Positions 4,237 through 47,696 of a DNA stretch of 64,000 bases are shown in pieces (the first letter of the stretch is position 1; each line of letters begins with the position of its first letter). Source of the DNA: Massalongia carnosa (Eukaryota). The translations under genes and the position numbers were made by a program. The notes beneath the pieces were generated by a model. That model had not been told where the DNA came from. It saw only the letters and a list, made by a program, of their open reading frames with translations, and ran no database searches. Location: NCBI GenBank assembly GCA_965645245.1, contig OZ287078.1, positions 930,001-994,000 on the forward strand. Reading direction: 5' to 3'.

Positions 4237-4796
4237 ATAAAGCCATCATTGATGATTCCGGGAAACAGCTAGGGGAGGGAAGAACACACTCCTTCTCATT
4301 CTGTCCAATACAACTAACTGGGTTAGCAGTATTGAAACTCTGCTGACTGGAAACACGCGCATGTGAGTAACTAGAATGTAGTATGCTCCCAAGAAAATCA
4401 AAGAACCAGCAACAGAATGATTTCCAGGCCGGCTGAGGTTCTTTCTCGGTTTTGCGACCAAAAGGGATGAGTATGTATCAATGGAAGGACTTTGACGAGC
4501 TGTAGGAAAGGTTGAGCATAGGAGGTAGTCCCGTAACATGAGAGATTCTTATTGAGAGAAGGTTTTCTTATGAATGAAATAATTTGCCGTACTCTTATGA
4601 ACGATACAAAAAGAAAAGCAAATACTCACTCCTTTTCACCGTGAGCGCGGATCAAATATTTCGATGATTCTTTCAAAGAATGGAAATCCAACGTTATAAA
4701 TCCATGGATGAACATACGGAACGCGCGAGCTTTCTCTCGCTTAAATTCAGTGTGAAAAATGCTCCCCGCTTCAGTGAGTTTATTAGTTTCGCTCCA

Positions 4797-5412
4797 ATGG
4801 CAAGAACGGAACCGAATATCATCATCACCGGAACGCCCGGTGTAGGCAAGACCAGTCATTGCGAGCTGCTTGCCCGAAACAAAGGGCTCAAACATCTGCC
4901 CGTCAACCAAATCGCGAAAGAGCGCGCGTGTCACGATGGTTGGGATGAAGAGTTCCAAAGCTGGATCGTTGATGAGGACAAAGTATGCTGCAGACCGAGT
5001 CCAAGTTACAAAGGAAAAGGAAAGAACCCATGAAAATGGCTGATAATTCCCTCCGTGAATCTAGCTCCTGGATGCGATTGAAGACGAAGTGAAGCAGGGC
5101 GGTTATATCATCGACTGGCACGCCTGCGACCTCTTTCCCCGAAGCTGGATCGATCTGGTGGTGGTCCTGCGGACGAACTCGACGATGCTCTACGATAGGC
5201 TCAAAGTGCGCCGGTACCCGGAGCGCAAGCTGCAGGAGAATATGGATTCCGAGATCATGGAGGTGTTACTCGATGAAGCGCGGCTGGCGTACGACGAGGA
5301 GATGGTGGTGGAGCTGCAGAGCAACGATCCCGACGATATCGACAGCAACGTTGAGCGCATAGAGACGTGGATCGAGAACTGGAAACGCGATCATGTTGAG
5401 GCTACCGCCTGA
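4797..5412 (+). CDS. FAP7: Adenylate kinase 6 / Fap7 (40S ribosome maturation NTPase)
   Basis: PNIIITGTPGVGKT P-loop, GYIIDWHACDLFP and YPERKLQENMDSEIM. One intron at 4983-5064. Confidence 0.93.
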
Positions 5413-5445
5413 CAGACCCTGAACCTGCTACCTATATGCTACGCT

Positions 5446-6417
5446 TTACTCCGCCCGCTTCAAAAACCAATCCCTCATCTGCGCTAGAGCTAGAAAACGA
5501 TGCGAAAGCCCATTCTTCTTCTTCGGGTCCATCTCGGCGTACGTCTCACCTTCGTACTCAAAAATCGGATCCCAACCTAGATTTCGTTAACGATTCCCCA
5601 TCAGCAAAGCGACGACCAGAGAAAACGCTTCTCGTAACAGGCATACCGAAACCCGGCGGTCCTCGAGCAGGTACGATCTTCCCCTTTTCAACCGTTTAGC
5701 CATACATATACGCACCCCCCTTAAAACTCGTTTCAGGACAACACCCAATAACAAAAAAAAAGCCCTTACCAAAAGTCTGCCTTCGAAAATAATAGGCTCC
5801 TGCATCGGCCCTTCGCAGTATGCAAAGGTACAAACGGCTTGGGCGCTTTTGTCTTCGTACGCCAGGAGGAGGTTGTTGAGGCCTTCGTGCCCTAGGGCTT
5901 CGAGGAACCATTTGCTATCGTCGAAATTGGTCCAGGGGGCAAAACCCATTGGGTGAACACCTTTGGGGGGGGGGAGACTTACATGTATGGGCCAGGAAGT
6001 TCCTTCAGAGCAGTAAAACAGAGACAAGTATCCTCCACGAGAACGGGGCCTTTGATCTTTAGGGGATCCCAAAATCATCATCAGTAGTAGCACTCGTAGT
6101 AGAATAATATCATCCATCCCATCCCATCCCATACCTACCACTACTACAAATTACCCACCTCCTTTCATACTATAGCAAAGCAAATCACCTTTCCCTTTCC
6201 TGCATACACACACCCAAACAACAACAACAACAAAACTTACAATCTCCGCCGCTCGCCGCCCCTTGTCGCGCGCGACGTCCCCGATCGTGCCCTGGATCTC
6301 GGGCAGGTCAGGGAGCGATCGGCTCCTCAGTGTCACCGTATCGCCCAGGATGGCGGTGACTTCGGCTAGCTTTTTGGCGTTGCCGGTGATGAAGTGGAGC
6401 TCTTTGGAAGTGGGCAT
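5446..6417 (-). CDS. HAM1: Inosine triphosphate pyrophosphatase (Ham1/ITPA), spliced
   Basis: [52 protein letters not shown] and SHR motifs across five exons; stop TAA at 5448-5446. Confidence 0.93.
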
Positions 6418-20313: not shown

Positions 20314-20568
20314 ACTGAGAATCGTACTATTGCTACACCTCCTAGCTGATACTGCTACATCCTCCTCCCTCTCCTTTCTGCTTCCTCAAGAGCGATAAAA
20401 TTTCAAGAAAACAATTAGAAAACCGAACTTATCAGACCACGTGGACAGAGATCAACGTTAGGTAAACCGGTTTAAAATGACTAATCGTCGGCTAGTCGCT
20501 CGCTTAATCCTCTCCCTCCAAGACGACAAAATAAGTGGCAGTCAGGTAATCTAGGTCGCGGCCATTTA

Positions 20569-20778
20569 CTGTCGCTTGCAAAAGGGTCTGCGCGGACCCT
20601 GAAATGGCCACGACACCTCAAAATTTAGCGAAAATAACGACCAACCAGCCAAACTTCCCTCACCGTCTATGTGATAACTATGCATTACTACCTGTTCTAG
20701 TACTGAAATTCGTAGCTGTAGAATATAGTCACTGCCATCCCCAGCTCCTCCGCCCTTGCCCGCTCTATTTTTCGTCAA
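20569..20778 (+). repeat. Left 210-bp TIR of the cargo-bearing Tc1-like element
   Basis: Reverse complement of 24910-25119. Subterminal hairpin AGGGTC-TGCGCG-GACCCT at 20583-20600. Confidence 0.95.
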
Positions 20779-20779
20779 G

Positions 20780-21819
20780 ATGCCTCGCCCCCTCAGTCCC
20801 GCCATGAGGGAGACAATTACCCTCAGATTTGTAAGAAATGACGATAACAAAAGAATAGCAGCTGTCACCGGAGTCAGTCTTCGGCAGGTGCAATTGATGA
20901 GGTCCAATTGGACGAATTTTGGAGACATCATCGCTCCACAAATAACTCTTGGTCATCGACCTAGAAAGTTGAGTCAGTATCATGAATTGCAACTGTTGGA
21001 ATTCCTGGAGCAACGCCCCCATGCCTACCTGGATGAAATGTGCTGGTTTGTCTGGGATGAATTTCAGATTTCCGTCGACGAATCCACTGTCAGTCGTGCC
21101 CTCAGACGACTTGGTTGGAATCGAAAGAAGGTGAGACGTCAGGCAGCTCAACGGAATCAAACTCTACGCGACGGTTGGATGCAACGACTAGGAGGTTGGA
21201 CTGCCGAGCAATTGGTCTTCCTAGACGAAAGTGCCGCGAGTGAAAGAACCGGTATTTATCTTCCTATCTTCTTCTCATCTTTCTTCTCATCTCATATATA
21301 GGTGATCGTCGATACGGCTGGGCACCGGCCGGTGTTCCTGCGACCATGGTTCAGGATTTGAGAAGGTCAAAGAGATGGAGCATTCTTCCTGCATTTACGG
21401 TCGATGGATATATAGCTTGGGAGGTGCATCAGGGCTCCATAACTGCATTGATCTTCAATGATTTTGTTCTAAATCACGTCCTTCCTCATTGCACTGCCGA
21501 CGGAGGTCCTAGATCTGTTTTAGTGTTAGATAATGCTCGAATTCATTGGAATGACGATCTCATTCAGATGTGTGAGGCTGCCAACGTCACCTTGGCAAGA
21601 CTACCTCCTTATTCTCCGGATTTCAATCCAATTGAGACGTCGTTTGCATTGCTGAAAGCATGGATTCGTCGAAATGGAGAGATGAGTCTCTCATATACAG
21701 AGGTGTATGGAGGGTTCGGACAATTTCTTCGGGATGCAGTCAAAGAAAGAAGTCGAATGGGAGACCCGGGAAATTTATTTAGAATGGCCGGTATTCAGTA
21801 TCCCACTATTCAGATCTAG
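20780..21819 (+). CDS. DD34E Tc1/IS630-like transposase, 329 aa, one intron (21252-21301)
   Basis: HTH region (AYLDEM..VSRALRRLGW), VFLDES, spliced TGDRRYGWAP, and VLDNARIH...LPPYSPDFNPIE with exactly 34 residues between D and E. No stops after splicing. Confidence 0.93.
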
Positions 21820-21870
21820 ATCTAGATTGCTGTCTGCAGACATCTTGTCTGTCTCATTTCGAAATCTAAT

Positions 21871-24800
21871 CTAATATTCTTCTTCGGCATAGTCGTATTC
21901 TAGATTATACGTATTTTCCAACTCATCCTCCTCAATGGCATCTTCCATTCTCGGATCAACCCTTTTTATCTCCCCTAGTGTCTCATCCACCTCTTCCTCA
22001 TCCACCTCTTCCTCATCCACCTCTTCCTCATCCACCTCTTCCTCATCCACCTCTTCCTCATCCACCTCTTCCTCATCCACCTCTTCCTCATCCACCTCTT
22101 CCTCATCCACCTCTTCCTCATCCACCTCTTCCTCATCCACCTCTTCCTCATCCACCTCTTCCTCATCCACCTCTTCCTCATCCACCTCTTCCTCATCCAC
22201 CTCTTCCTCATCCACCTCTTCCTCATCCACCTCTTCCTCATCCACCTCTTCCTCATCCACCTCTTCCTCATCCACCTCTTCCTCATCCACCTCTTCCTCA
22301 TCCACCTCTTCCTCATCCACCTCTTCCTCATCCACCTCTTCCTCATCCACCTCTTCCTCATCCACCTCTTCCTCATCCACCTCTTCCTCATCCACCTCTT
22401 CCTCATCCACCTCTTCCTCATCCACCTCTTCCTCATCCACCTCTTCCTCATCCACCTCTTCCTCATCCACCTCTTCCTCATCCACCTCTTCCTCATCCAC
22501 CTCTTCCTCATCCACCTCTTCCTCATCCACCTCTTCCTCATCCACCTCTTCCTCATCCACCTCTTCCTCATCCACCTCTTCCTCATCCACCTCTTCCTCA
22601 TCCACCTCTTCCTCATCCACCTCTTTTATGACCTGAGTATTGGCCTGAGTGGTCATTTGCGAAGTTGGCAGGTAACGTGGACGTCGAGACATTTGCCGAG
22701 ACGGGGGCGGAGGCATTCGCCGAGAGGAAGGCGGAGGCATTTGCATCTGCATCTGTCTTCCAAATTTGCTGACATCTCGTGCCAGCTGAATTCCGATACC
22801 GGGAGGAATACTCAGCTTCGACCAGAAGGACTGATGTATTGTAATAGAAGCTCTGCTGGCATAGTAAAAAGCTCACTTTTGAAACGATTGATCTTTCTAT
22901 CTACCTATCTAAGGACCGTGTTTATATAGATAGAAAAACATGCCGAAAACCGTTCTCCCTATGACTCACCTTCCTGCTTCCTAGAAATCTAAGATTGGTG
23001 ATTGACTCATATCCAATTTATGACTCGATGGGAATGTTCATAGAAGTTTTGCGGTGCTTCTCGAGGTCGTTATGTGTTGCCTAATGTTCTTACCAACGCA
23101 CTAATCCCAATGCGGTACCATGTGACTCTGAACACTTTACTAGGCATCAGCCGGGTGACTTTGCACATTACAACATGATGCTCAATACCCTTTAATGTCT
23201 GGATAGTCATTAAATCGTACCCACCTTCCATCAGTCGATCGTACGCATGCCTCAGTACGCCTTTCAGATGAGGTTTGGATTGGATATGCCAATTGACATA
23301 GTCTTCCAAATCTTCCTCCACTAGACTGCTCGGAGCGGCGGGAGGGGCGACGACGGAGGGGGCATAACTTCCTTGACGATCTCTTCGATCCACAGGCGTT
23401 TCGTCTCGATGACGTCCGAAGTCGGAAGCTTGAGAAGGAGAATAAGAAGGAAACTGGGACGAATGAAGCTGGGGAAGTGGTGAAGAAGGAATAAATGCCG
23501 AGGGGTTGGCAAATGCTGAGGGGTTGACAAACGTCGAGGGGGGGGCAAATGCCCAGGGGGGGAAGGATTGATACGCGGGATGCTGATAGATGGGATGCAA
23601 ATGTCTGGTCGAATCTTCCTGACTTTCCTGTTTCGGAGTCGATGATGCAGTCTTCCTTTTACCTTTTTGCGAATACATACTTTCCCTGATAGTCGATGGA
23701 GGCATCTGAGAAGTGACTCCCGAAACGTCATCATCCAATGCCTTATTCCAAGCCACGAACTGATGACTGCTGATAATGTAATGTTGATCTCTTTCTTCAT
23801 CGTTCCAACAGTATCGGCCGAAATTCTCACATGTCTTCTTCTTAAAGACATGCAGAGATTGTAGAGCCGTCATTCTTTCAACTGTCTGACCATGAAGAAT
23901 GGCCCTCTCCTCCAACTCCTTCTGCAATTTCAAGGTGGCCGTTCCCAACTTTTTGGAAACGGCAGCAGTCGGATCTTCTGGAATTTCACCGCTTTTGGTC
24001 CGAGCGAATTGATAGATTAGATCGATGGCCAAACTTTTTGCTCCATTCTCATATCGGAAAATCAAGACTTCTTCAATTGGAAGCCAAGACTCTTCCAACA
24101 TCAGAGACATACGTTCTTGATGTTTGATGCCATTCCATGCAACAGTGGCTTTGACATTTACTAGTCGACAAGCAAAAGTTTTGTCATCTGCATGACGTTG
24201 AGCCTTTAAACTCATCTCATTGAGATGAGGTCTGAAAAATAATCTCTTTTCGAATTCCGATTCCGAGTTAACTTTTCGAGTACTGGACATCTGATGAACG
24301 ACATCCTTTTCAAACAGCACCGTCACATTCAGCAGGTAGGTGATGACAATGGGCGAGTCTGACGAGGGCGTCTTCTTGGTCTTGGTACGTGGATTTGACT
24401 TTGGCTTTCTAGTAGTGGCATATTTGACAATCTTCTTTGCAGCAGAAACGAAAACATTCTCCTCAGCACTCTCGACTTCTTCCTCAACATTCCCCTCGGC
24501 AATCTCCTCGACATTCCCCTCGACACTTTCTACATCTACGTCATTCTCCGAGTCAATTGTATCATCTTCGTCATCCGGGACCATTAGGGATGCATAATAA
24601 TTCGAGCCGGGAGGCGGCCTGGGCTTGATAATGAGAGGGGGCTTTGCTTTGGGAGGCTTTGCTTTGGAAGACTTTGCTTGGGGGGGGGGCTTTGTCTTGG
24701 GAACGATCTTTTGCCTGCGAGATGCCTTCGGAGCTGAGGTTGGCGTCGATATGGGATCATCGTCGTCGACAGCATCTTTGCCCTTCGGCCCCGCCAAGGT

Positions 24801-24887
24801 CAGTTTTATCTTTGCCTTTACAGGCTCTGTCGAGGCATTTGGAGGCCCGGTATTCGCTCGTTTTGAGCGAGGACCTCTTAGTTTCAT
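21871..24887 (-). CDS. Transposon cargo gene of unknown function, ~890 aa reconstructed, interrupted by a solo LTR; C-terminal (EEEVD)n tail
   Basis: ATG at 24887 just inside the right TIR. Removing solo LTR 22837-23175 and one TSD fuses the 620-aa and 293-aa track ORFs in frame (..KGIEHQSFWSKLSIPPGIGIQLARDVSKF..): 2673 nt, 890 aa plus stop. Confidence 0.75.
21982..22625. repeat. Perfect 15-bp minisatellite (CTCATCCACCTCTTC), ~43 copies, encoding EEEVD on the minus strand
   Basis: 644 bp with no visible mismatch. Confidence 0.97.
22837..23175. mobile_element. Solo LTR (339 bp) inserted in the cargo gene
   Basis: 5-bp TSD TGATG at 22832-36 and 23176-80. Termini TATTGTAAT...ATTACAACA (inverted; TG changed to TA at one end). 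Internal TATA-like TATATAAA on the minus strand at ~22921-28. Confidence 0.85.
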
Positions 24888-24909
24888 GTCGAAGAATGTG
24901 GGGGAGAAT

Positions 24910-25119
24910 TTGACGAAAAATAGAGCGGGCAAGGGCGAAGGAGCTGGGGATGGCAGTGACTATATTCTACAGCTACGAATTTCAGTACTAGAGCAGGTGA
25001 CAATGCATAGTTATCACATAGACGGTGAGGGAAGTTTGGCCGGTTGGTCGTTATTTTCGCTAAATTTTGAGGTGTCGTGGCCATTTCAGGGTCCGCGCAG
25101 ACCCTTTTGCAAGCGACAG
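24910..25119 (-). repeat. Right 210-bp TIR of the cargo-bearing Tc1-like element
   Basis: Reverse complement of 20569-20778. Confidence 0.95.
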
Positions 25120-25232
25120 TAAATTACTATTACATTTACTATCACATTATTATGTTATTATCACAACATAAATCATTGCTATCTATATCTACAACGGATT
25201 CTGTATCCTTACAAACACGTATTAGTGATGCT

Positions 25233-25721: not shown

Positions 25722-26067
25722 ATGCTAAAACACTCTTGTAGGAAAATCCTGACGAACGAACTGCATGCGCAGCTCAGATATTCAAAATTCGGCCTACAAC
25801 GTTGTACAGCTCTATTGCGACTGATAAGAAATCTTCTTTTTCTGATATGAAATCCTCCTCTAACAAGAAATCTTCTTCTAGTGCAAAAAGTGCAAGAGGT
25901 GGACAAAACAAGATACTTGAGGAGCATCAAGTAAAAGCGATTCATCACTTTATTCGATCCTTACTTGCACGTGGTATTCAATAATCGCACGGAGTTGTAT
26001 TCAATGCAATTGTCAGTTTAAAACGCGAGCACAATCCTGAGTCGAGTAGACCTACTCTACGCTATTA

Positions 26068-27371
26068 TGGTAGGTCGTTAGTGTCCGGATAGGCGAATTT
26101 AAACGAATTTCATAGCAGTATGAATTATCTATTGTTGCTGTTACAAAATCAACGTTTCAGTAAAATGATGCGATTATTTGTTTACATATAACTAATGTTT
26201 AGTATAACCTCCATTTGCATTCAGGACTGCTTGCACTCGACGAGGCATTGACCGCATTAAACTTTCCAAAAACGCCTCCGTTATGTAGTCCCATGCCTCC
26301 AAGATAGCATCAACAATGGCCTCTTGACTTTTTGGGGCACTTGCTGACAGAATGCGTAATTCGGGGTGTCTTCTAAAGACTATGTTCTTCACTTTCTCCC
26401 ATACCATCTCGATGGGGTTCAAATCGGGGGAGTAGGCCGGCCAATCCATGACCGTGTACCCCTTTTCTTTGAACTAGTCCATTGTCTCTCGAATTTTGTG
26501 TGTTTTAGCTCCAACTTGCATGAAAACAATGCCCGAATCGACATCGAGCATGGTAGGAAGATCTTCTTTATAAGCATCGAGTATAATCAACCTTGTGATA
26601 CCTTTCTTTCCCGTACGATCTGGATCGGGCTCCAACGAGATCAAACCACCCCGTCGATTGCCTGCAAAGCAGCCCCAGAACATCTTTGTGACTCTTGATC
26701 CATTGTTGACTGGTTCGAAGCATTCTTGATCCCATTTCTCATTTGGAAGTCGAAAAACCCACACGTTCTCACTCCCATCCTGTTTGCAAACTAATATCTC
26801 ATCAGACCAACACACTTGAGCCCACTCATCCTCCAAAACATCCTCATATTAACGTGCCCAGCCCAGCCAATCAACAATATGAGCTTCCGTTAACATCGTA
26901 CGATTGGCTGCGCGCCATTTGCGAACGTTTTAATCTCGAAGACGTCGTTTCATGGTGGTTCGAGAAACATCGGGCATAATGTTAGCTTGCAAACTCCCCC
27001 AGAGGCTGTCGACCACCCTTTGACCCCGATTTAATTGCTGCTCGTATCAAATGACGATCTTCTCGTACTGTGGTTATTTTGGGCTGACCAGATCGTACTT
27101 CCGATTTGTGGTCGTCGCGTGTTGTAGCCTTCTTCAAAGTGTCTCCTATGGTGGAACGACCCCATTGCGGAAACTTTTCGTGTATAGTACTAACGTAGGC
27201 GCCGGCGAGGCCCATACCGTACATTTCAGCTCTGATTATGACGGGCACTTCTTTGCGCGTAGTTTTGGGCTGTTTAGAGCTACGTGGTGGTGGCATGATG
27301 GATTGAAAGGTGGTTATTTACTTTTCAAAACGAAAAAAATTCTCGCCTATCCGGACACTTCTGACCCCGCA
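26068..27371 (-). mobile_element. Tc1-like DNA transposon, 1304 bp, defective
   Basis: Imperfect TIRs with core AGTGTCCGGATAGGCGA; TA on both flanks (26066-67 and 27372-73). Confidence 0.88.
26192..27296 (-). pseudogene. Tc1 transposase pseudogene
   Basis: RSGQPKITT, VCWSDE, MFWGCF, FMQ(V)GAKTH with the second catalytic D lost, and WPAYSPDLNPIE. Frameshift near 26980 and in-frame TAG at 26474-76. Confidence 0.88.
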
Positions 27372-29755: not shown

Positions 29756-32700
29756 CTAAATTTCTTGGCAACGACAGCGGGGAGTTGTACATGGGGTGAT
29801 GTGTGGTCCGGCGGCGGCAGGGTAAGCAGAATGAAAGTCGTCTAAGGCTTGCTGACAATTAGTTAGGAAGTTGAATGGTTCCCAAGTAGGGGTATGTCCT
29901 TCCCAATTGACGAAATACTGCAACAGAGGCGGCTGATAACGGCGATCGTATTTTGAGTTCAGAATGCTGTTTACATACCATTCCCGTTGCCCGTCTTCTG
30001 CGATAACAGGATCACGCGGTGCTGGGTGTTGACCGGGCAAAGGGTCGGCAGGGTCGTGTTGCAAGAGATTGACATGGAAAACAGGATGAATCTTGACAGT
30101 CTCTGGGAGTTCCAACTGTACGATTAAAGGATTGTTTGGGAAGACACGATTCACCCGATATGGTCCTATATTTCTGTCGTCCAATTTCACCGTAGGTCTG
30201 GCAGTCTGGATATTCTTTGTGTTTAACCAGACCATATCTCCGACAGAATAACGAGGGCAGGGACGACGATTTGCGTTGGCGTTGGATTCATATATGGCTT
30301 GGGCAATTAGCATTTCGTCACGCAGGTGAGAATCTAATTTCTGCATCCTGTCAGCGAATTTATTAGCAGCAATCAGATTTGCCCGGGCCTGGGTCGATAT
30401 ATTTTCCGGTAGAGGTTCTGCAGGTTCAAAGCCCATGCGGGGGTGTTGCCCTGAATTTGCTAAAAATGGCGATGCCAGAGTGCTAGATGAATCAGTGTTA
30501 TTGGCAGCGAATTCAGCGCCAGGAAGAAACTCGACCCAATCATCCTGCATATAATTCACATAAGCCCTAAGGTAATGCTCCATTGACGCATTTGCTCTTT
30601 CCGTTTGACCATCTGTTTCAGGATGATAACTGGTTGATAAACGAGCATCAATCTTTAGTCGTTTGCACAATGTTTGCCAGAAGTCCGATACGAATTGGGA
30701 TCCACGATCAGAAACTAGAACATCTGGCAGGCCATGGTGTTTCCATACATACCAATAGAAAGCTGTTGCGGCTTCTTCGACTTCCATCGTTATGGTAGGT
30801 GCGTAATGCTTTTGTTTGGATAATCGATCAACGAATACAAGAATGTAGCGATAGGTGACTCCCATAAAGGTACTTACGGGGAGAGGACCGACATAATCCA
30901 TGGATACGTCTCGCCAGCGGCGTTCTGGCGGAGGCAACGGTCGCAACCATCCTTGGTATCTTTCCCGCGATGGTTTAGACCGTTTACACACATGGCAGTT
31001 TCGCACGAATTGCTGAATGGTCTTATGCATACTGGGCCACCAATAGGAGCGGCCGATAATCTCGAAGCATTTCGCACGTCCTGGATGGCCACCTACCACA
31101 CTATCGTGGGCTAATTGCAGAATCCTGAGTCTCAATCTGTCTGATTTTGGTACATATCGTCGATTTCGGAAGTAAAGAACACCATCCCTGTCTTCGCATT
31201 CAGCCAACTGAATTCCGCTGTGATATCTGGTTCCGTTTTGCAGCATTACTAGAATTTTCGGGGCAAAGCGATCTCTTTGAATGGCTTGATTCCAAAGCTC
31301 GTCGGTAGGGATATCCATCGGGTCATTGTCAGAGGCGATCTGATCTGAATCTGGATCGAGTTGAGGTTCGTCGTTATGATTATCATCTTCGTTGCCTAGA
31401 TTTTCGGATTCATCGAGTTCGTGTTCCTGTTCTAAAAACGCAGGTGCTAGCCTTATGACTTCTTGTTCTAGGAAAGCGGGTGCTAATCTTATAGCAGGGC
31501 ATAAATTCAGGTCTCGGGCAACTCCTTCATCTATATTATGCGATTTGATGACAGTTTGATGTTGAAATTGTCGGCGTTCGTCTGTTTCATCCCCTTCTTT
31601 AGGGAGATCTCCTGATCTCCTTGTTAGGGCGTCTGGTTTCCCACCTGCTTTTCCAGGTCGATAGATTATTTTATAATCAAATCGGGATAAGAACTCGCTC
31701 CAGCGGGCTTGACGGCGGCTCAATTGCTTGGAAGACGTGAAATATTCTAGATTTTTGTGATCCGTGATTACATTGATTGGGTGAGCGGAACCCTCCAATT
31801 CGGGTCTCCATTCTTCGAAAGCCCGAACGATTGCCATTAACTCCTTATCATAGATTTCATAATTTACATTCCGCCGGATTGTGTTTCTTGGAAAAGTAAG
31901 CAATAGGTCTTAGAATACTGTTCTTGTCATATTGCGAAAGAATTCCTGCGGATATATAATCAGAGGCGTCTGTCTCCACGATAATTGGCTTGTCTGGATC
32001 GAAGTGCAATAAGACTACGTCTGAGGTGAAGGTTCTCTTCATAGTGTCGAAAGCTTGCTGACATTTATCAGTCCATAAAAATTTCACGTCTTTTCGTGTG
32101 AGGTTGGTTAATGGGCCAGCAATCATGCTAAACCTCAGAATGAATCGTCTGTAAAAGTTCGCAAACCCTAAGAAGCTCTGTACGTCTTTCACGTTTTGGG
32201 GAGTGGGCCAATTAATAACAGTTTCGACTTTGGCAGGGTCCATTTTTATCCCCTCTGTGGTCACGATTAGACCTAGATATGAAACTTCTTTCACATGAAA
32301 TGCGCATTTAGTGATGTCTGCTTGAAGGCCTGCCTCACGCAGTTTGATCAGAATTCTTTTAACGTGAATCTCGTGCTCTGATTCAACGTCACTGTATATC
32401 AGAATGTCATCCAAATATGCGGTGCAAAAGTCGTCCAGATACTCTCGCAGAGTATCGTTGATAAAGTGCTGAAAAGAGGCGGGTCCATTACACAACCCGA
32501 AAGGCATTACCAGGTACTCAAATAGACCAAATCTTGTGCGGAATGCGGTGAGTTCTTCGTCGCCTTCCTTTATGCGTAGGCGATTAAAGGCTGCTATTAT
32601 ATCTAATTTAGTAAATATTTTAGCTCTGGACAAGCGATTCAAGGTCTCGGCTATCAATGGCAACGGATATCTATTCTTGATAGTGACGGCATTCAGGCCT

Positions 32701-34200
32701 CTGTAATCAATACAGAAGCGAAGGCCCCCTCCGGGCTTTTTCACGATCATGACAGGAGACGCCGCATGCGAACGGCTGGTACGAATGAACCCCTTGGCCA
32801 AATTATCGTCTAAATACCGACGGAGTTCTTCTATTTCGTCGCGGCTCATGCCGTATAACGCTTGATTTGGAGGTTGGAAGCCATCTTTCAAATTGATGGC
32901 ATGGTCGTAGGGCCGGCGCTCTGGAAGCACTTCAGATTCTTTTCTAGAAAAAACGTCTAGGAATTCGTGATATTGTTTCGGTAAGATGGTGCTCGGGTCA
33001 ACGTTCTTTCGTTCCCGAATGGCTTCAAGCTCTTCTTGAGTTACGGATGTTTCTAAGGTTAGCTCCTTATTCATTTTGCAGATGGTCATATGCATATCCT
33101 TATCGCTAGGGCAGGCCTTCGGATTCAATGGTGGAAAGGCCTGCATCGCTATTAGGCTAATGGATGAGCTAGGGTCGGAATGACTGGGACTGGGACTGGG
33201 AGGTGCTTTTATTCCTAAAAAGCGATCGATTTCATGAAGTGAGATACTAAATATCTCGTGATTTTTCTTTCTAGCAAGGCGATCGAAAGTTACTGCGCTG
33301 ACTTCGCAAATTTGTGACGAATTGCTGCAGGATGTCTGAGTTGAGTTGATTGTCTGAACTGAGCTGGATATCTGAGTCTGATTGGGTTTCTGGATTGGAC
33401 TGAGTGTCCGAACTGATTGGGGTCTGACACGTACATAGCTTTGTGATCGTGGTCTGATTTTCGGAGTTGTGCCTCTCTGAATGGCGGTGAGTATTCGGCT
33501 TGGGCCATCTTCTTTTTGATATTCAAAGATGGAGAGCTCGGGTTGACTGGTCTGCAGAGCTGTTTCTTCTGATTGCCATACCTTCTGACTTTCGGCAGGC
33601 ATAAGGAATTCTTCTTCTTTCGTGGTGGCTGATTGCACTATTACAGGTGAAGGACAGCAGTGTGCAAGGCAAAAGGGGGACGATAGGGACAAGGTGTTGT
33701 TGGAAAAGTTTGTAATGACTCCGTGTCTGCGAAGCCATGGGTGGCCCAAAACAATGGGGTAATGTCTTAATCCTGTTACATAAAGAAAGAGCTTTTCTAC
33801 ATGCCCATTTAGGTCCATGGTAACTTCGGCGATGTGAGTTATGTTGCCAGTCAATGCTGGCTGGCCATCGAAGCCGGAAAGTCGTCTAGGATATTTCAAT
33901 TGGTGTAAGGGGAAGTTATGAAAACGCGCGAAATCTTGATCAATAAAGGAATATCCAGATGCACCACTGTCCACAAGAAGCAAAGCTTTTATTCTGTTTT
34001 GAAAACGACGTAATATACAAGAGATAACCATATGACTATCTCTAAATGTCTCATCAGTTTCAAAAAGAGTAAGAGCAGACGCCGCCGAAAAACGATTGCT
34101 AGACATGAGCTGCGGTGTAAACGATGTGGACAGCAGGCAAGAAGAAATCAAGAAATCAGGTTGTCTCTGCGCGCGACTATGCGCAGAGACTAAGCTTTTT
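29756..34200 (-). pseudogene. Gypsy pol (protease, RT, RNase H, integrase, chromodomain) with one +1 frameshift at ~31862
   Basis: [59 protein letters not shown] and chromodomain YFVNWEG..TWEP. TGTAAATTATGAA has one extra A relative to the C-N-Y-E reading. Confidence 0.92.
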
Positions 34201-35428
34201 CTACCTCCTGGACCTTAGATATCTGTGACGTTGATATCGGCGTTGATTGTGCATTTGATGATCCCTCATATAGGACAAGGGAGCGAACCGCGGTTGTCTT
34301 TCGATTCGGGCAGTCACCAATGGTACCCGGATGTTGACGTCGACAATAGAAGCATAGCTTCCAGTCATCACAGATCTTACGGACTCCTGGATCCGTCAAC
34401 TTATGACCTCGAACGGCGGCCATTGCTGAACTCAGATCCATGGGATCGCCGCCGGCAGCGGCGACAGGGGCAGCAGGTGTGGTGACGGCCGGGGTGATGC
34501 GTGTGGTCGTGTTGGAGGTGCTGGTCGTGGCAGGTGCGTTTCCTCGTCTAGTGGTCGGAGAATTGCTGGCATTGGCAGCAGGGGTGGTGCGAGAATGGCG
34601 ATGTTTTAACTGCCTCAGGTCCCAGTCGGTATCGGACCACATCTGCACATGATCGTCAAACGTAACGGGCCTGGACCCATCGGTTTTTCGCCACGAGATT
34701 GCGGCTGCCTGTGTGGCGTAGTTGACATTTGATCGCATGGCGTCGATTAGAGAGGCATCTTCCATTCCCGATCGTTCTTTCTTCTGTGTGAAGAGGTTAT
34801 AGTATTCTTCGAAACTTAGCGTACCCTGTTTGAGGGTGTCACGAAGATAGGTGCGTGCGTCTTCTTCCTCAAAGCGATTGCCACATGCCTGGCGCAATTT
34901 CATTCGCCAATCTTTTAGACTTGTCAGCGCGCACAAGCCATCCTTTCTATACCTGTTCATCAAGTTGTGTGCTTTTTTTCCGATGGTAAGTCGGGATTCG
35001 GCATAAGTTATCTTTTCGTTCTCTGTAGGATAGCGGTCATGGTTCACATGCATCCTCTGTATCAGACTCTGTTCCCATGAATCGAGATTGTCCATGTTGC
35101 CGTCGTATTCGGCAATGTCCGGCAGCTTTTCTGACTTGGCCGGTTTGTCTGTGGAGAGGTTCTTGGACATAGCAGCTGTTACGGCGGCCACGATCGAAGT
35201 AAGGAACTCGGGACTGAGAGAGGAAGAAGGGGAAGACGTGGAAGGTGGTGTAACAATGGTGGAGGCTTGTCGTGCTTGGGCTTCCTGTTCCAATTTTGCT
35301 ATTTGGTTTTGCAATCTCTCCATTTCTTGAAGGAATGGAAGGGGGTTGGCCTGCACGTAGGCAAGCTGTGCATCTGTGCTTTCAATGGGCTGCTCGGGCA
35401 TAGGTTGTCCTTGATCTTGGTTTGACAT
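34190..35428 (-). CDS. Gypsy gag, 412 aa
   Basis: [24 protein letters not shown] and zinc knuckle CFYCRRQH..C; located between the 5' LTR and pol. Confidence 0.9.
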
Positions 35429-36104
35429 GACTGATTATCTATAGGCAAAAAACGAAAAGAGAAAGGAAGAATAGTGCTTTGAAAAACACAAAAAAATATA
35501 GATCGGACGTAATGTCAGGGGAGGGCTGGAGAGATACAAGACTCTATCTTGCAGAACGGATATATAGATATGCTAAAACTAGAAGTAGAGAATAATACAC
35601 AAGACGTCCGATGAAGAGCTCTAAACACCTGGGAAACCACATAGACTTTATAGCCATGGCTTTCAACTCTCCTATTCTCGACTTGCCCCGTCTCTGTTCC
35701 TGTACTAATTTCCTTAACATGATTGCTTTGACTTATCCCGCCTTTATCTGTGCTGAAGCACTCTCAGTCATAAGCCTAGATAGTGGAGACGTTGAGATTG
35801 GATACGGATTGTAGGAGATTGATAGTGCGCTGAGGGCGGCAGAAGAACGCCTGAGCACGATGGATGACAGCAATGGGCCCTGTTAAATACTAACCCGATC
35901 AGGATAAGCGGGAGGGTGCGAAGCGATTCCGTGACAGCGATTACGAACCTTAGGTTCAGGATTAGGACTTACTAAAGAGAATGCTGAGAAAATGATTGCA
36001 GCAAAGGAAAAACAAGTTAAAGAAACAGAAACAAAGAAGCAGCATCAGACATAAATGAAGATTTGGCGTATGGAAAGAGACGCCAAATATGTCGAAGGAG
36101 TATC

Positions 36105-41781: not shown

Positions 41782-44700
41782 TGTAGGTACCAAAAGGGGG
41801 ATTCCAGAAGGGGATTCTAGGGGGATTCTAGAAGGAAGGGGACTAGCTAGATAAGGCTAGAATGGAATGGATCGGAAGGGCTAGAACAAGCGGGCACGTG
41901 CTTATCACGTGTTCGCCCACTATAGATAGTAGCCCTTCCCAGATAGAATCCATGCATCATCCACCAAACCAAGCACCAAGACGTAGTTATCGTATTACGC
42001 CAGGTGCAGGTAGGTGGACCCACACTGATCAGTTTTCGAATTCAGATCAGAAACCACCTTCGGAATCAACTTCTAGAAACCTTCTCTCACCTAGCCCTCA
42101 GATCAGAAACTTTTTCATCTAGTCGGCAAATCAGAAATCATCCAAAAATGTCGAAGCAACCAGACCCATCTCACGAGGAATCCAGTTTTCTTGAAGGAAT
42201 CAGCACCATGAATCTCGATCCCACCGCGGCCATCGCCGACATGACACTCTTTCGTAAATACACCACCAGCGCATTTAACGAGTACATCAAAGCCAACATG
42301 GAAGATTTTCGTCTTTGGGAAGCCATATACTACGACTTCCAGAATTGGGAGGAAAAACATTGGAAGTCACTGGACACCGTTACCTGGGCTCTCATCAAGG
42401 ATTGTTGCCTACCCCGCGGAATTTGGATCGATAACTTTGGCAAGAAGGGAAGTAGAGCCAAAATCATGATAAAAGTCGTCCAAGATGACTACGATGGAGA
42501 ATGGGACATAGAGAGAATTTTGTACGTGGAGAAGAACTATCATCGTTTGTCAAGGTATATCCAGAGTCGTAAAAATCATCTGCTAGGTAGAACTAGTGAT
42601 GCCTCTGCATCTGCACCTCCAAGTCCATCGATAGCACATGCAGGGGCACCGCCACTCCCACCTACCGAAAATCAACCCCTGGGTCAACCAATAGGGCAGC
42701 TTCATTTTTCCCCTGCTGCCCCGATACGGCAAAACCAACCTATGGCTCGACCAATCAGACAGCCTCGTTTACCACCTGCAACGGGAAATCCGATCTATCA
42801 AGATCGACCGACACCCTACAACGTCTCTCGGCATCCCGAGCCTTCATACGCCCCGCAGCGGCAAATGCCGAAACCTTACGAGACTGCCTATTACGAGCCA
42901 CCGGCACCTACATGGGCCCCAGGACCAACACCTGGACCAAGTCAATATCCCAATCCGACTCCTGGCCATCAGTCTCACTATTCCAGTCCGACCTCAGGAA
43001 CTCAGTATTCCAAAGAATTGACTCAGTTAGACAAAATCTACAAGTCCGAAGACAAATTTAGCGGTACCGGAGACAATTTCTCTTTTAAACTAACCATCTA
43101 CTATGACAAATGCAGACTGGTCGGATTGCCGCCAGAGGCCTACATTCAGGGAGCCTCGATCATGCTTTCTGGACAGGCTCAAAATCACTACTATGCAAAT
43201 CGGGGGGATGCTGCCTCATTTGAAGAATTCTGTCGGAAGATGCAACTCTTTTTTGAAGGTCCCGAATGGCAACGGTTGAATTTGGCTAAATGGCAAACAG
43301 TCAGCCTAAACGATACAATTGCGGCAAACCCCACCTTGAATACTACCGAATGCCTCCGGAAGATGTGTACCGAGATCGACACTATTCAACGAGGCATCGA
43401 TCCCGCATACCATGGACCAGTACACCTCCGAGAAAACATCATACGGGCCTGCCGCGGGCATCCCGCGCTCGCCGCCGGCCTCACCAATCCTGTCTCAGAC
43501 ACCTCCGGTCTGGTCAATAATCTATACGCATCAATTATCAATTACGAGGCGGTGCACAAACCCACTTCAACGAGTGGATACGTGCAATCTTACAACGAAG
43601 GGGATGACGAGGCGGAGGCATACTTCACCGACCGACGGTACCGAGGACCCGGTCGAGGCAGAGATGGGTTCAAACCCTACCTCTCAGGCGGACCTACACC
43701 ATCCCGACAGTTCGGAGTCCCGTCATCCCGAGGGTTCTCGCGTCGGAAGAAATGCTTCGTATGCGGAAAAGAAGGATGTTGGTCTAGTAATCATACTCAG
43801 CAAGAACGGGATGATTCCAAAAAGCGATTCGCTAATCGCTTTCCTCAATACAAGAATCGTTCGGGATACGATCAGTATCTTCAGCAATACATCGCTCACT
43901 GTGAGGGCGATGAAGATGAAAATGATGTAGCCTACTTTTTCGACAATCTATCAATTGATTCTATCAATGACCCCATGCCTGCGTCCGAGGCAGCGGAGAA
44001 TGAGCTATTCCTCACCTCTATTGGTCGAATCAAAATTCCCGAGTCCGAACAGATGACCAACTTACTAGCCGACAATTCTTTTAAACACCGAATTACATCG
44101 ACAGATGAAACGATCACTTCCATCGCTCCGATTCCCTACACGTTCAACACGTCATCCAATTCCCGATACGATGAATCAGAATTCAAGGGACTATTGATAG
44201 ACTCGGGGGCCGCCACCAGATCCACGGGTGGCATCGGCCAGTTAAAAGCTCTGCAGAAAATTGACGACTCGATAAAATTTAACGTCAGCACTGCCGGGTC
44301 AGCCAGTTTTACATTTGGAATTGGAAGCACCGCATCTATAGGGACGGTACTATTGGAGACACCCATGGGACCAATTACATTCTACATAGTGAAAGTTAAT
44401 ACACCGTTCCTACTATGTCTGGCAGACATGGACCGGTTGGGAGCATTTTTCAACAATACCATTAACCAAGTTGTCCAAATCGGGCCCGGCACCGGTCGTT
44501 CTCATCCAGTCATTCGGCGGTACGGTCACGCATTTCTTCTATGGCGTACATCTGCTTACTCGGTCATCACCGAGTCTCTCAGCCAGAATCCTTGCTTTCT
44601 GACCGAAATAGAATTACGTCGCCTGCACCGCCGCTTCGGACATCCATCAGTACGCCGCCTACATCAGATTCTAGAACGATCCGGACATGAAGTGGAAATG

Positions 44701-47696
44701 CAGGCATTGCAGCATTTGACCAGATATTGCGAGCATTGCCAAAAGTATGGAAAATCGCCTGGCCGATTCAACTTCAACATTAAGGAAGACGATATCAACT
44801 TCAATTTCAACGTCATAGTGGACATTCTTTGCATACAAGGCAAACCGGTTCTACATCTGGTCGATGAAGCTACTCGGTTTCAGGCGGGACGATGGTTAAA
44901 ATAAATCTCTGCCCGGCATGTTTGGGACCAGCTGCGGACCTGCTGGATCGATACCTATCTCGGCCCACCAGATATCATCTCCTCCGATGCAGGGAAGCAA
45001 TTTACATCTCGGGAATTTAAGCAATACGCGGCAAATATGGGAATTGTCATAAAGAATGTTCCAGTGGAAGCTCATCATTCCATTGGAATGGTTGAACGGT
45101 ACCATGGACCACTACATCGGGTATACAATATAATCACTTCTGAAATTCCCGGGATCGACCCTGCGCTGGCCCTGCAGATGGCATTCAAGGCAATCAATGA
45201 CTCGGTCGGTCCGAATGGACTAGTGCCCACTCTATTGGTATTCGGAGCGTACCCAAGAATGGTGGAGTCAGATACCACTCCGACAATTACTCAACGCGCT
45301 GTAGCCATGCGGAAGGCAATGGATGAGGTCAGAAAAAGCATAGCATCCCGTCAGATCAACGATGCGCTTAATACTAGAAATGGACCATCTACGGATTCCA
45401 TACATGGACTGTCACTAAACTCCCCTGTCCTAGTATTCCGAGAGGGTAATGCGGGACAGACGGGGTCATGGAAGGGACCGTTCCGACTCATCTCCATGCA
45501 GGATGAGTCGATCATCGTCGAATTGCCAAGTGGTCCGACCAAATTTAGAAGCACGTCAGTCAAACCATACTACCATCTAAATCCCGAGAATGAATTTCCC
45601 AATGCTGCCGAGAATGAAATTCCAAATAACGCAGAATCGGACCCGACAAATCATGAACCACAGAATCCCGAGTCCGATCCAATCTCGGAACCAGTCTCGG
45701 CACCAGTCAAACGTGGCCGCGGGAGGCCCAGAAAGCATCCAGCCCAGGCTAACCTTTGTTTCGTCATGAAAGAAGACGAAAATCAATTTCCCATGAAAAA
45801 GGGAAACCAATTTACCGCATCAAGGCAAAAAGAAATTTCCGGACTACTGGAAAAAGGAGTATTCAAACTCGTTCAATTCGAAGACATCCCGGCCGGTGCC
45901 CGAGTCTTCAATTCCCGATTTGTAGATGAGACAAAGAATGCCGGGACTGAAAAAGCATTCGAAAAATCGAGACTAGTGGTACAGGCCTACAACGATATCA
46001 ATAAAAGCCTGGTACTTACTCAATCACCGACAATCCAAAGGGTGAGTCAGCGACTACTAATCTGCCTCGCTACCACCATTTCGAACACTAAGCTCTACCT
46101 TCGAGACGTTACTCAAGCGTACGTTCAATCAACGTCAGATTTGAATCGAGACTTCTACATTCGCCCGCCTCATGAATTAGCTACGCTACTAGGTGCCCCA
46201 TCCGACTGCATACTTCAGGTCGTAAAACCACTATACGGGGTCCCGGAGGCAGGTAATCATTGGTTCGCTACCTACCACGGGCATCATCTGAATAGACTCG
46301 GGATGACGGAGTCGACATACGATCCGTGCCTACTGTATAAGACCAATTCATCGGAATTCGGAATCGTCGGAATGCAAACCGACGATACATTAATTCTAGC
46401 CAATGACATCTTCGCTACCAAAGAGGAAAAAGCCATCAAGGAAGCAAACATCCTGACCAAGCAACGGGACTGCCTCACCCCTGGCAGCCCAATCAAATTC
46501 AACGGAACCAAGATCGACCTAGGCCCAAACGGGGAAATTAAAGTCACGACCAATGCTGAAGGCATTTCATTAATAGCAAATCACAATGCCGCATCAACTA
46601 GCTCCAAGGGAAAAGTCCGGCCCAGGCTATCACCAAAAGACCAATATGTGGCCCAAAGGGCACGAGGTGCATACATCGCCTCAATCTGCCAACCAGAAGC
46701 AGCTTTTGATCTGTCCCATGCGGCGCAGTCCATCGAATTTTCATCAGATGATGTTGCCCTACTAAATAAGCGCCTGGATTGGCAATTGGAAAATAAGACA
46801 AGGGGTTTAAAGTATGTCCAACTAGATCAGAATTCACTTCAACTAGTCGTCTTCACCGACGCCTCATTTGCAAATAACCGGGATTTGTCGTCGCAAATTG
46901 GATTTGTCATCTGCATTGCAGACTCAACAGGCAAAGCCAACATCATTCACTGGTCGTCAATCAAGTGCAAACGAGTCACCAGAAGCGTATTAGCTGCGGA
47001 ACTGTACGGCATGGCACATGGCTTTGACACCGGCGCGGTGGTCAAGGCTACTCTAACAAAGATGCTCGGGTCGTCTAGATCTAAACATGAGATTCCGTTG
47101 ATACTGTGTACGGATTCCAAATCATTATATGATTGTTTGGTCCGATTGGGAACGACCAATGAGAAACGTTTGATGATCGATGTAATGAGCCTCCGACAGT
47201 CATATGAAAGGCGAGAAGTGACAGAAGTAAAGTGGATTCATGGTCAGAATAACCCGGCAGATTCAATGACCAAATCCAAACCATCTTCGGCACTAAAGGC
47301 AGTCATCGACATCAATCAGATCAACCTGGACACTTCCGAATTGGTAGAACGGGAGTTCAAAAAGGGAGCTGGGAATCAGGGGTAGGAATCGAGGCAAAGG
47401 GTAAATTCCGGTCAAAAAGCGACCATTTTTTCCATCTTTCAAAGAGTGCCCAGTGTAGGTACCAAAAGGGGGATTCCAGAAGGGGATTCTAGGGGGATTC
47501 TAGAAGGAAGGGGACTAGCCAGATAAGGCTAGAATAGAATGGATCGGAAGGGCTAGAACAAGCGGGCACGTGCTTATCACGTGTTCGCCCACTATAGATA
47601 GTAGCCCTTCCCAGATAGAATCCATTCATCATCCACCAAACCAAGCACCAAGACGTAGTTATCGTATTACGCCAGGTGCAGGTAGGTGGACCCACA
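41782..47696 (+). mobile_element. Ty1/Copia LTR retrotransposon, probably GalEa clade, full length (5915 bp)
   Basis: 243-bp LTRs at 41782-42024 and 47454-47696 (~3 differences); TSD CTATC at 41777-81 and 47697-701. CTGATCAGT directly after the 5' LTR; domain order gag-PR-IN-RT-RH. Confidence 0.96.
42148..47385 (+). pseudogene. Copia gag-pol polyprotein with one in-frame stop (TAA 44902-44904)
   Basis: CFVCGKEGCWSSNH knuckle, LIDSGAA protease, HRRFGH..CEHC integrase, KSRLVVQAY, RDVTQAY, KPLYG, QTDD, FTDASFA and CTDSKS. The two track ORFs are in the same frame. Confidence 0.92.

Follow-up and report, generated by a model that had tools for sequence, protein, structure and literature searches.

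The stretch of the Massalongia carnosa genome analysed here (assembly GCA_965645245.1, contig OZ287078.1, positions 930,001 to 994,000 of the forward strand; its 64,000 nucleotides are called the window) holds at positions 20569 to 25119 a young copy (divergence about 0.5%) of a 3.6-kb IS630/Tc1-type cut-and-paste transposon with a dedicated second gene. We hold with high confidence that this gene, which faces the transposase gene, is an accessory gene of the element, as had been proposed in an initial annotation of the window: all 34 copies selected by their transposase carry it, its domains are under selection, and the convergent layout recurs in other fungi. The two-gene family is real and widespread and, apparently, undescribed as a family. 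As to its role, we favour, with a probability of roughly 45%, a trans-acting nuclear factor that would cluster on the element ends and keep the ends and their promoters open for the transposase. The features of the window copy are as follows (TIR, terminal inverted repeat; LTR, long terminal repeat).

20567..20568, no strand: TA target-site duplication, left, from sequence comparison
20569..20778, plus strand: left TIR, 210 bp, ending 1 base before the transposase ATG; presumed promoter and transposase-binding end
20780..21251, plus strand: transposase exon 1, with two helix-turn-helix (HTH) regions and the first catalytic Asp, D149
21252..21301, plus strand: predicted GT-AG intron, 50 nt, phase 1; the spliced reading matches intronless relatives
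21302..21819, plus strand: transposase exon 2, with D234 and E269 (DD34E)
21820..21870, no strand: gap of 51 bp between the two stop codons
21871..22831, minus strand: 3' part of the accessory gene (end of the SAM domain, P/R/M-rich stretch, acidic tail)
21982..22626, minus strand: EEEVD minisatellite, 42 in-frame units of 15 bp
22750..23318, minus strand: SAM domain, split by the LTR; about residues 532-604 of the intact copy, with an SSP motif in front
22837..23175, no strand: Ty1/copia solo LTR, 339 bp, with a 5-bp duplication at 22832-22836 and 23176-23180
23176..24887, minus strand: 5' part of the accessory gene from its ATG (K/P-rich region, acidic patch, beta-grasp, zinc module, P/S linker, start of SAM)
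23664..23939, minus strand: long helix and C-x3-5-C-x4-12-C-x5-16-H-x8-12-W module, about residues 322-413; putative zinc finger
24003..24344, minus strand: beta-grasp domain (ubiquitin/PB1-like topology), about residues 187-300
24910..25119, minus strand: right TIR, 210 bp, ending 22 bases before the accessory ATG
25120..25121, no strand: TA target-site duplication, right, from sequence comparison

The boundaries and coding content bear out most of what the initial annotation had claimed. A direct TA duplication lies outside both TIRs, which are identical at 204 of 210 bases, and over 34 loci TA was found at 49 of the 51 ends counted. The two genes are convergent, each beginning at the inner end of one TIR. 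The transposase is indeed an intact spliced DD34E enzyme on the plus strand, with 329 amino acids (aa), no internal stop, a spacing of 34 between D234 and E269, and an exon junction that reads as in intronless relatives; the two stops are 51 bp apart at exactly 21819 and 21871 (15 bp apart in a second subfamily). Four sequencing runs compared with the element behaved as DNA and gave no spliced junction. The accessory frame runs on the minus strand from 24887 to 21871 and has the announced 890 codons once the 339-bp insertion and its 5-bp duplication are removed, but this length is peculiar to the window copy, the intact frame of a sister copy (L072) having 690 aa. The EEEVD array, an in-frame minisatellite, is hypervariable, with 42 units in the window copy and 1, 1, 25, 8, 1, 1 and 4 in seven sister copies. 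The solo LTR, of which the genome holds at least 40 near-identical copies and which is found paired around a Ty1/copia element, interrupts the SAM domain of the window copy and is absent from all sister copies. Of the few substitutions that this accessory gene bears, those at 23323 and 23845 hit two of the six columns that are invariant among 32 homologues (C353 and P527), by chance or through selection against an active copy. Because of the LTR and these two changes, the partner gene of the window copy is dead, and its transposase is whole.

The element has the TA duplication, TIRs, N-terminal HTH and DD34E triad of the IS630-Tc1-mariner superfamily, and the transposase passes the Pfam cut-offs for DDE_3 and HTH_33. 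With the exons scanned apart, it scores 53 and 75 bits against NF033545 (IS630), for which the curated cut-off is 100 bits; full-length close relatives reach 149 (P0164) and 141 bits (P0167), and the transposases of this clade are 30-39% identical to bacterial IS630-like matches. The transposase tree contained no named Tc1/impala reference set, and the canonical Tc1-like element that neighbours ours in the window took a very long branch in it, with at best 21% identity to the set. Direct repeats at both ends of the long TIRs, as in the inverted repeat/direct repeat subgroup of Tc1, were absent, and we rejected inner copies of the terminal motif, the outer 26 bases not being significantly repeated (nine TIRs, best p 0.07).

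In the host genome, eight nearly full-length copies and a single end fragment make up the window subfamily (subfamily 1); they differ by 0.4-0.6%, and their substitutions are of mixed types. One of these (L071, G000:C4:2132041-2135000) has a rearranged right end and is immediately adjacent to an inverted derivative of a third subfamily. Subfamily 2, at about 75% DNA identity (26 loci retrieved), and subfamily 3, with 55-58% identity in the transposase and 28-29% in the partner core, are laid out identically, at close to 3.5-3.7 kb in length and with TIRs of about 135-215 bp; two more subfamilies (4 and 5) share the gene arrangement. In subfamily 2 (L094 752-800 and 4037-4097) both frames open with an ATG that lies inside the TIR, and the two proteins could share a near-identical short N-terminal peptide. 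By exact end motifs, a complete accessory frame was found in 1 of 8 subfamily-1 and 1 of 26 subfamily-2 copies, and three further copies have open accessory frames of 692-731 aa. Subfamily 3 has given rise to a 2.6-kb non-autonomous derivative in which the accessory core is deleted and half of SAM and the acidic tail are kept; with eight loci (L194, L196, L197, L198, L199, L201, L202 and L207) it outnumbers its parent. As its copies share one TAA stop in the transposase and still number at least eight, it moved in trans, and the same success without an accessory core allows the accessory protein, too, to act in trans. A second organism carries the element at about 99% identity to L072, at several-fold the depth of the flanks; there the accessory gene has a deletion of 17 bp as well as new insertions.

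In this genome the second gene goes with the element. Thirty-seven of 38 loci examined had a transposase match, and in all 37 the partner lay downstream on the opposite strand (in one, SAM alone); 34 of these had been picked by their transposase end and three by the partner. All 34 transposase-selected copies, from subfamilies 1 and 2, carry the second gene; the concern that other copies might lack it is thus answered for this set. Beyond the host, we surveyed metagenome loci anchored on the transposase (the best 80 of at least 582 confirmed stretches), a design that does not show how often the second gene stands alone elsewhere; the hosts of these loci were inferred from tree neighbours and GC content. 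Among the 15 testable loci, those with fungal-like transposases and at least 1.2 kb downstream, 11 had the partner, versus none of 11 bacterial-like loci with equal flank. Hidden Markov models detected its domains in ten (L111, L112, L114, L115, L120, L121, L122, L136, L172 and the degraded L180), in each case on the opposite strand downstream of the transposase, to which SAM is the nearest domain; the eleventh, L148, gave weaker zinc and SAM matches in the conserved order. Eight positive loci are bounded by TIRs of 63-144 bp lying 2.8-3.9 kb apart, most with TA ends. With shorter flanks, the partner was present in L131 and L132 and was not seen in six other fungal-like loci, and a single stray match (E 0.79) occurred elsewhere in the 80 loci. 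Homologues thus adjoin related transposases between TIRs in other fungi, and the possibility of unlinked host genes, which the initial annotation had allowed for, gained no support from these loci.

Further signs of linkage came from contig sizes and trees. Contigs with a partner (68) and those with a transposase (75) gave four exact size matches where 0.38 were expected; three are credible (4066, 10484 and 50441), and the fourth (4291), which would join an Ambispora transposase to an ascomycete-like partner, was discarded as a probable coincidence. Partner and transposase distances co-vary (Mantel rho 0.71, p 0.0006, 11 pairs; rho 0.72, p 0.005, in a thinned set of 8 pairs). In the tree, some partner-bearing elements fall into an ascomycete-like clade (support 99/98) and others cluster with transposases of Acaulospora and Ambispora (100/100); the bacterial-like rows are separate (96/95). 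Joining all partner-bearing elements in one clade gave p 0.36 in the approximately unbiased test, by which a single origin is neither rejected nor shown.

The accessory protein has no recognisable catalytic domain. Pfam gave no match above cut-off for the protein, its domains or 32 homologues, and NCBIfam gave none for the protein. AlphaFold, from 105 sequences, modelled three modules with a predicted local distance difference test score (pLDDT) above 90, of 114, 92 and 73 aa, between disordered linkers (predicted template modelling score 0.41). The first (residues 187-300) has beta-grasp topology and resembles the PB1 domains of NBR1, MEK5 and Par6 at structural Z-scores of 5.1-6.0; inspection of 75 homologues showed neither a conserved acidic OPCA motif nor a conserved front lysine, as PB1 domains have. 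The second (residues 322-413) joins a long helix to a C-C-C-H-W pattern shared by 81 of 95 homologues and is most simply explained as a zinc finger with putative zinc binding; it has no named relative in the ESM Atlas or a PDB profile search. A Cys/His cluster had been noticed here at the outset; it is present, but consists in the family of three Cys and one His, and since the first Cys is Phe in the window copy only two Cys are seen there. The third (residues 532-604) is modelled as a five-helix bundle (pLDDT above 90), preceded by an SSP motif in 49 of 51 homologues. The earlier reading of this segment as SAM-like is strengthened by structural matches to tankyrase, SARM1, EphA1, Shank3 and PHC3 (Z 5.1-6.3), by a 12-member profile, two canonical-looking members included, that finds the Caskin SAM at E 3e-4, and by the distant relative L131, which passes Pfam SAM_1 with 27.6 bits against a cut-off of 23; the window protein itself has no Pfam SAM match. 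A helix-hairpin-helix (PGIG) DNA-binding reading of this last domain was dropped, the motif occurring in only 12 of 51 homologues and not family-wide. Around the modules, the N-terminal 105 residues include 25 K/R and 23 P, the last 45 include 21 D/E, and the variable regions hold tandem peptide arrays.

A profile search found 188 homologue clusters at 50% identity. The three domains stand in equal order in 26 of 28 matches of at least 500 aa, and no fusion to a transposase occurs among 150 homologues. Only two relatives are named, from the lichen-forming ascomycetes Brigantiaea and Gallowayella; word-indexed protein searches, of low sensitivity, returned 2 and 4 matches, and basidiomycete clusters in the ESM Atlas at 0.91-0.92 are a lead only. 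The gene is intronless in the window subfamily, as had been noted, but not throughout: in several distant relatives it appears split over frames as if by introns. The early-diverging-fungus version in L148 (2502-3572, minus strand) carries an additional Cys-rich region before a beta-grasp-like part and seems to be interrupted by several introns; as hhalign of the ascomycete profile against the L148 pieces was weak (probability 5.7 and 0.2), the homology of that part rests on inspection. PDB matches to Lon protease (full profile, E 0.06) and to kringle domains (zinc module, E 0.009 summed over two weak stretches) were judged chance. Foldseek against PDB and viral models gave no match at E 0.001, its top PDB rows being bacterial beta-grasp proteins that reflect fold only.

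Selection acts on this protein between lineages. Between subfamilies 1 and 2 the ratio of nonsynonymous to synonymous divergence (dN/dS) comes to 0.28 across the partner as a whole (95% interval 0.21-0.35); its beta-grasp, zinc and SAM domains have 0.16, 0.14 and 0.07, the two transposase exons 0.06 and 0.18. All are rough values, with synonymous sites near saturation (dS 1.4-2.3 for the three domains). Among 18 subfamily-2 copies the corresponding ratio of polymorphisms (pN/pS) is 0.93 and 1.39 in the transposase, 0.88 in the partner core, 1.15 in the linker and 0.31, on 15 changes, in SAM. Like the transposase, the second protein is thus constrained by purifying selection when lineages are compared and decays neutrally after insertion; such constraint, combined with drift among copies, is expected of a gene that promotes the spread of the element, through founding copies, and not the fitness of the host. 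The partner changes faster than the transposase (identities of 64 vs 81%, 37 vs 57% and about 20 vs 40%). In transposase exon 2 (21302-21819 compared with L094) dS between subfamilies 1 and 2 is 0.46, against 2.4 in exon 1, which suggests that the subfamilies recombined in the catalytic half of the transposase.

These values bear on three other explanations of the second gene. Gene capture by DNA transposons is generally frequent, and this is the sole point for a host gene fragment captured once and passively carried as Pack-type cargo; domain dN/dS of 0.07-0.16 at dS of 1.4-2.3, the domain order conserved in 26 of 28 long homologues and the equal position and strand in distant fungi make this extremely improbable, and the dN/dS and conserved placement appear already to refute it unless the metagenome loci are misassembled. 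A benefit to the host or an enforced retention, with the gene as a signalling scaffold, an addiction or a drive factor and the transposon as its vehicle, would agree with the frequency of PB1-like and SAM folds in signalling scaffolds and with the low pN/pS of SAM, on its 15 changes. We consider it improbable all the same: complete frames are restricted to 1 of 8 and 1 of 26 copies, the core pN/pS is 0.88, no catalytic or toxin-like family was found in Pfam, and no intact stand-alone host copy turned up among the own-genome matches examined. Slightly better placed, and still unlikely, is a self-limiting repressor, whose SAM polymer, or the antisense overlap of convergent transcripts, would damp transposition and spare the host. 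SAM polymers repress in several animal proteins, with stops separated by no more than 51 or 15 bp the transcripts likely overlap, and the derivative without the accessory core amplified well; on the other side, codon-level purifying selection on three domains indicates that the protein matters and not RNA alone, and a repressor common to all copies would be weakly selected in a founding copy.

For the reading that we prefer, the steps would be the following. An identical promoter in the TIRs would drive both genes, to judge from the position of their ATGs, 1 and 22 bases inside the TIRs. The accessory protein would be nuclear and non-catalytic and would act in trans; its zinc module may bind the element ends or their chromatin, and self-association through SAM, perhaps through the beta-grasp domain too, may let it spread or cluster on these ends. 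TIR promoters and ends would then be kept open and available to the small transposase. Such a role would be like that of Spm TnpA or Arabidopsis VANC, combining anti-silencing with end-scaffolding, and helpful without being indispensable.

Several observations weigh against an anti-silencing end factor, or against a tight pairing of the two genes. No partner was detected in 4 of the 15 testable metagenome relatives (L116, L117, L118 and L123); the two-component family proposed in the initial annotation is therefore supported as a convergent pair that recurs across fungi, but not as an obligatory one. L117 contains (4321-5724) a 1.4-kb single-gene element with TIRs 79% identical, nested in the tree among accessory-bearing elements, and as this element has an open transposase frame of 352 aa the transposase can probably work alone; by this evidence the second gene does not appear to be strictly required. 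Among 20 further loci, L193, L195, L200, L205, L206 and L208 lack a partner in the fetched stretch despite a related transposase (for L195 a partner lies about 7 kb away, in L210), and in L108-L110 fragments of the partner occur that have no transposase nearer than 4.5 kb. That the two genes co-diverge follows from linkage alone. Hardly any non-coding DNA lies outside the TIRs, and nine TIRs have no significant internal repeats, both unlike VANC targets. No structural Z-score reaches 8, and unrelated folds within each class score equally well: streptokinase (Z 6.3) and other beta-grasp folds tie with PB1, and the RAD51C N-terminal domain (Z 6.4) ties with the SAM domains. L180 carries the gene and is nevertheless degraded with a signature like that of repeat-induced point mutation (RIP), which the gene thus does not prevent. 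A RIP signature is lacking in the host both from these elements and from an unrelated gypsy element; we rejected the absence of RIP as evidence of protection, since other repeats of the host lack it too, and the intact state of the elements says nothing on this point.

That the gene has been kept in fungi whose silencing systems differ agrees no less well with a transposase cofactor. An integration or targeting cofactor, MURB-like or Harbinger-ORF-like (ORF, open reading frame), would bind the transposase and target DNA or chromatin and aid reinsertion or the choice of safe sites, leaving silencing unaffected. The two genes co-diverge, the partner is kept in ascomycete-like and Glomeromycota-like lineages, the transposase with its 329 aa is only the size of bacterial IS630 enzymes, and a common TIR promoter would give matched expression; against this stand the single-gene relatives, a target that is plain TA at 49 of 51 ends, and the lack of a transposase fusion among the 150 homologues. 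We put this explanation at about a quarter of the weight, ahead of the others and well behind the anti-silencing end factor, and the data separate the two poorly. A bolder form of the preferred reading, in which the IS630-like two-gene branch is as old as the split between ascomycetes and Glomeromycota and the partner polymerises on the ends of its own element and defeats fungal chromatin or RNA silencing, is at present doubtful.

The surroundings of the element are those of a filamentous fungus, as marked by host genes of the window that were named from reading their translations (class V myosin-like, Nap1-like, P-type ATPase, forkhead). Just downstream of the element lie a small transposon remnant (25742-25984, plus strand), which we take to be pogo-like, and a broken, unrelated Tc1-like transposase (26192-27317, minus strand). 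Farther on are a gypsy-type retrotransposon (29756-35434, minus strand) and a copia-like one (41947-47385, plus strand), both with long open frames, the former without RIP signature.

Among the DNA transposons of fungi, Tc1/mariner elements are the most abundant (PMC5751038). Fungal members have been treated as one-gene elements, and a long-lived two-gene branch means that many "hypothetical proteins" (188 clusters) are transposon genes, that fungal DNA transposons carry a helper gene, and that an unnamed putative zinc-binding domain joins the catalogue. The host genome, with near-identical young copies, an intact transposase in the window and an intact partner in L072, makes the way in which the element copes with silencing directly testable. 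If the partner does defeat silencing, a cut-and-paste transposon of fungi would encode a counter-defence protein that arose convergently with VANC and TnpA of plants and that adds a new module for sequence-specific anti-silencing.

How, then, does the element compare with known systems? A search of the literature, largely without subscription papers, supplements and Repbase Reports, where such elements may be listed, found no description of the two-gene family, and the accessible parts of PMC11544213, PMC9977792, PMC5751038, PMC13004909 and 10.1101/2025.06.16.659975 describe no such two-gene element. IS630-like DD34E elements of eukaryotes (NF033545, DDE_3) have the same TA, TIRs and HTH plus DD34E transposase; a conserved second gene is a feature of the present clade and not typical of the superfamily. 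Superfamily members typically have one coding sequence (CDS) (PMC13469147), a trait that is not strict and from which the present element departs with its second gene under selection. Dici of Diutina catenulata is likewise fungal, about 4 kb long, DD34E, with TA and extra CDSs; it has three CDSs, of which the central one is a transposase of 473-477 aa, additional CDSs of 143-146 aa, a relic of a transposase and TIRs of 8 or 33 bp, and the 22 relatives of Dici carry one gene each (PMC13469147). The present element is set apart by these descriptions, with 210-bp TIRs, a transposase of 329 aa that falls outside the Dici range of 432-478 aa, and one 690-aa multi-domain partner found across fungi. 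TBE and Tec elements of ciliates are DD34E elements with additional ORFs under purifying selection, a zinc-finger ORF among those of TBE; they have three ORFs, are restricted to ciliates and have TIRs of about 80 or 700 bp, and a beta-grasp/SAM protein is not reported for them in the accessible text (PMC7325037). Two genes and a fungal host set the present element apart from these, again by the descriptions.

Outside the superfamily, several systems are comparable in layout or function. MuDR of maize has a Mutator-like element (MULE) transposase and a 9-bp duplication, whereas the present element has a DDE_3 transposase and TA, and the second proteins are unrelated. The analogy is thus of layout only: in both, two convergent genes start at long TIRs, in MuDR mudrA and mudrB with promoters in TIRs of about 215 bp (PMC3440606). 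VANC, from the VANDAL elements of Arabidopsis, combines conserved domains with variable regions that hold tandem peptide arrays, and evolves faster than its transposase (PMC5735166). Our accessory protein resembles it as an element-encoded non-catalytic partner with fast evolution and tandem peptide arrays in variable regions, and differs in having no DUF1985 or DUF287 match in Pfam and no tandem target arrays in non-coding DNA. Spm TnpA of maize is another element-encoded non-catalytic partner. Mariner elements that carry Fanzor offer a second large ORF inside an IS630/Tc1 element; our accessory protein differs from Fanzor/TnpB in that it has no RuvC nuclease, there being no Pfam match and the three folded modules being otherwise assigned or too small. 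Multi-gene members of the superfamily are therefore known (TBE, Tec and Dici), and, as far as their accessible descriptions go, the present family differs from each of them in gene number, transposase size, TIRs or partner.

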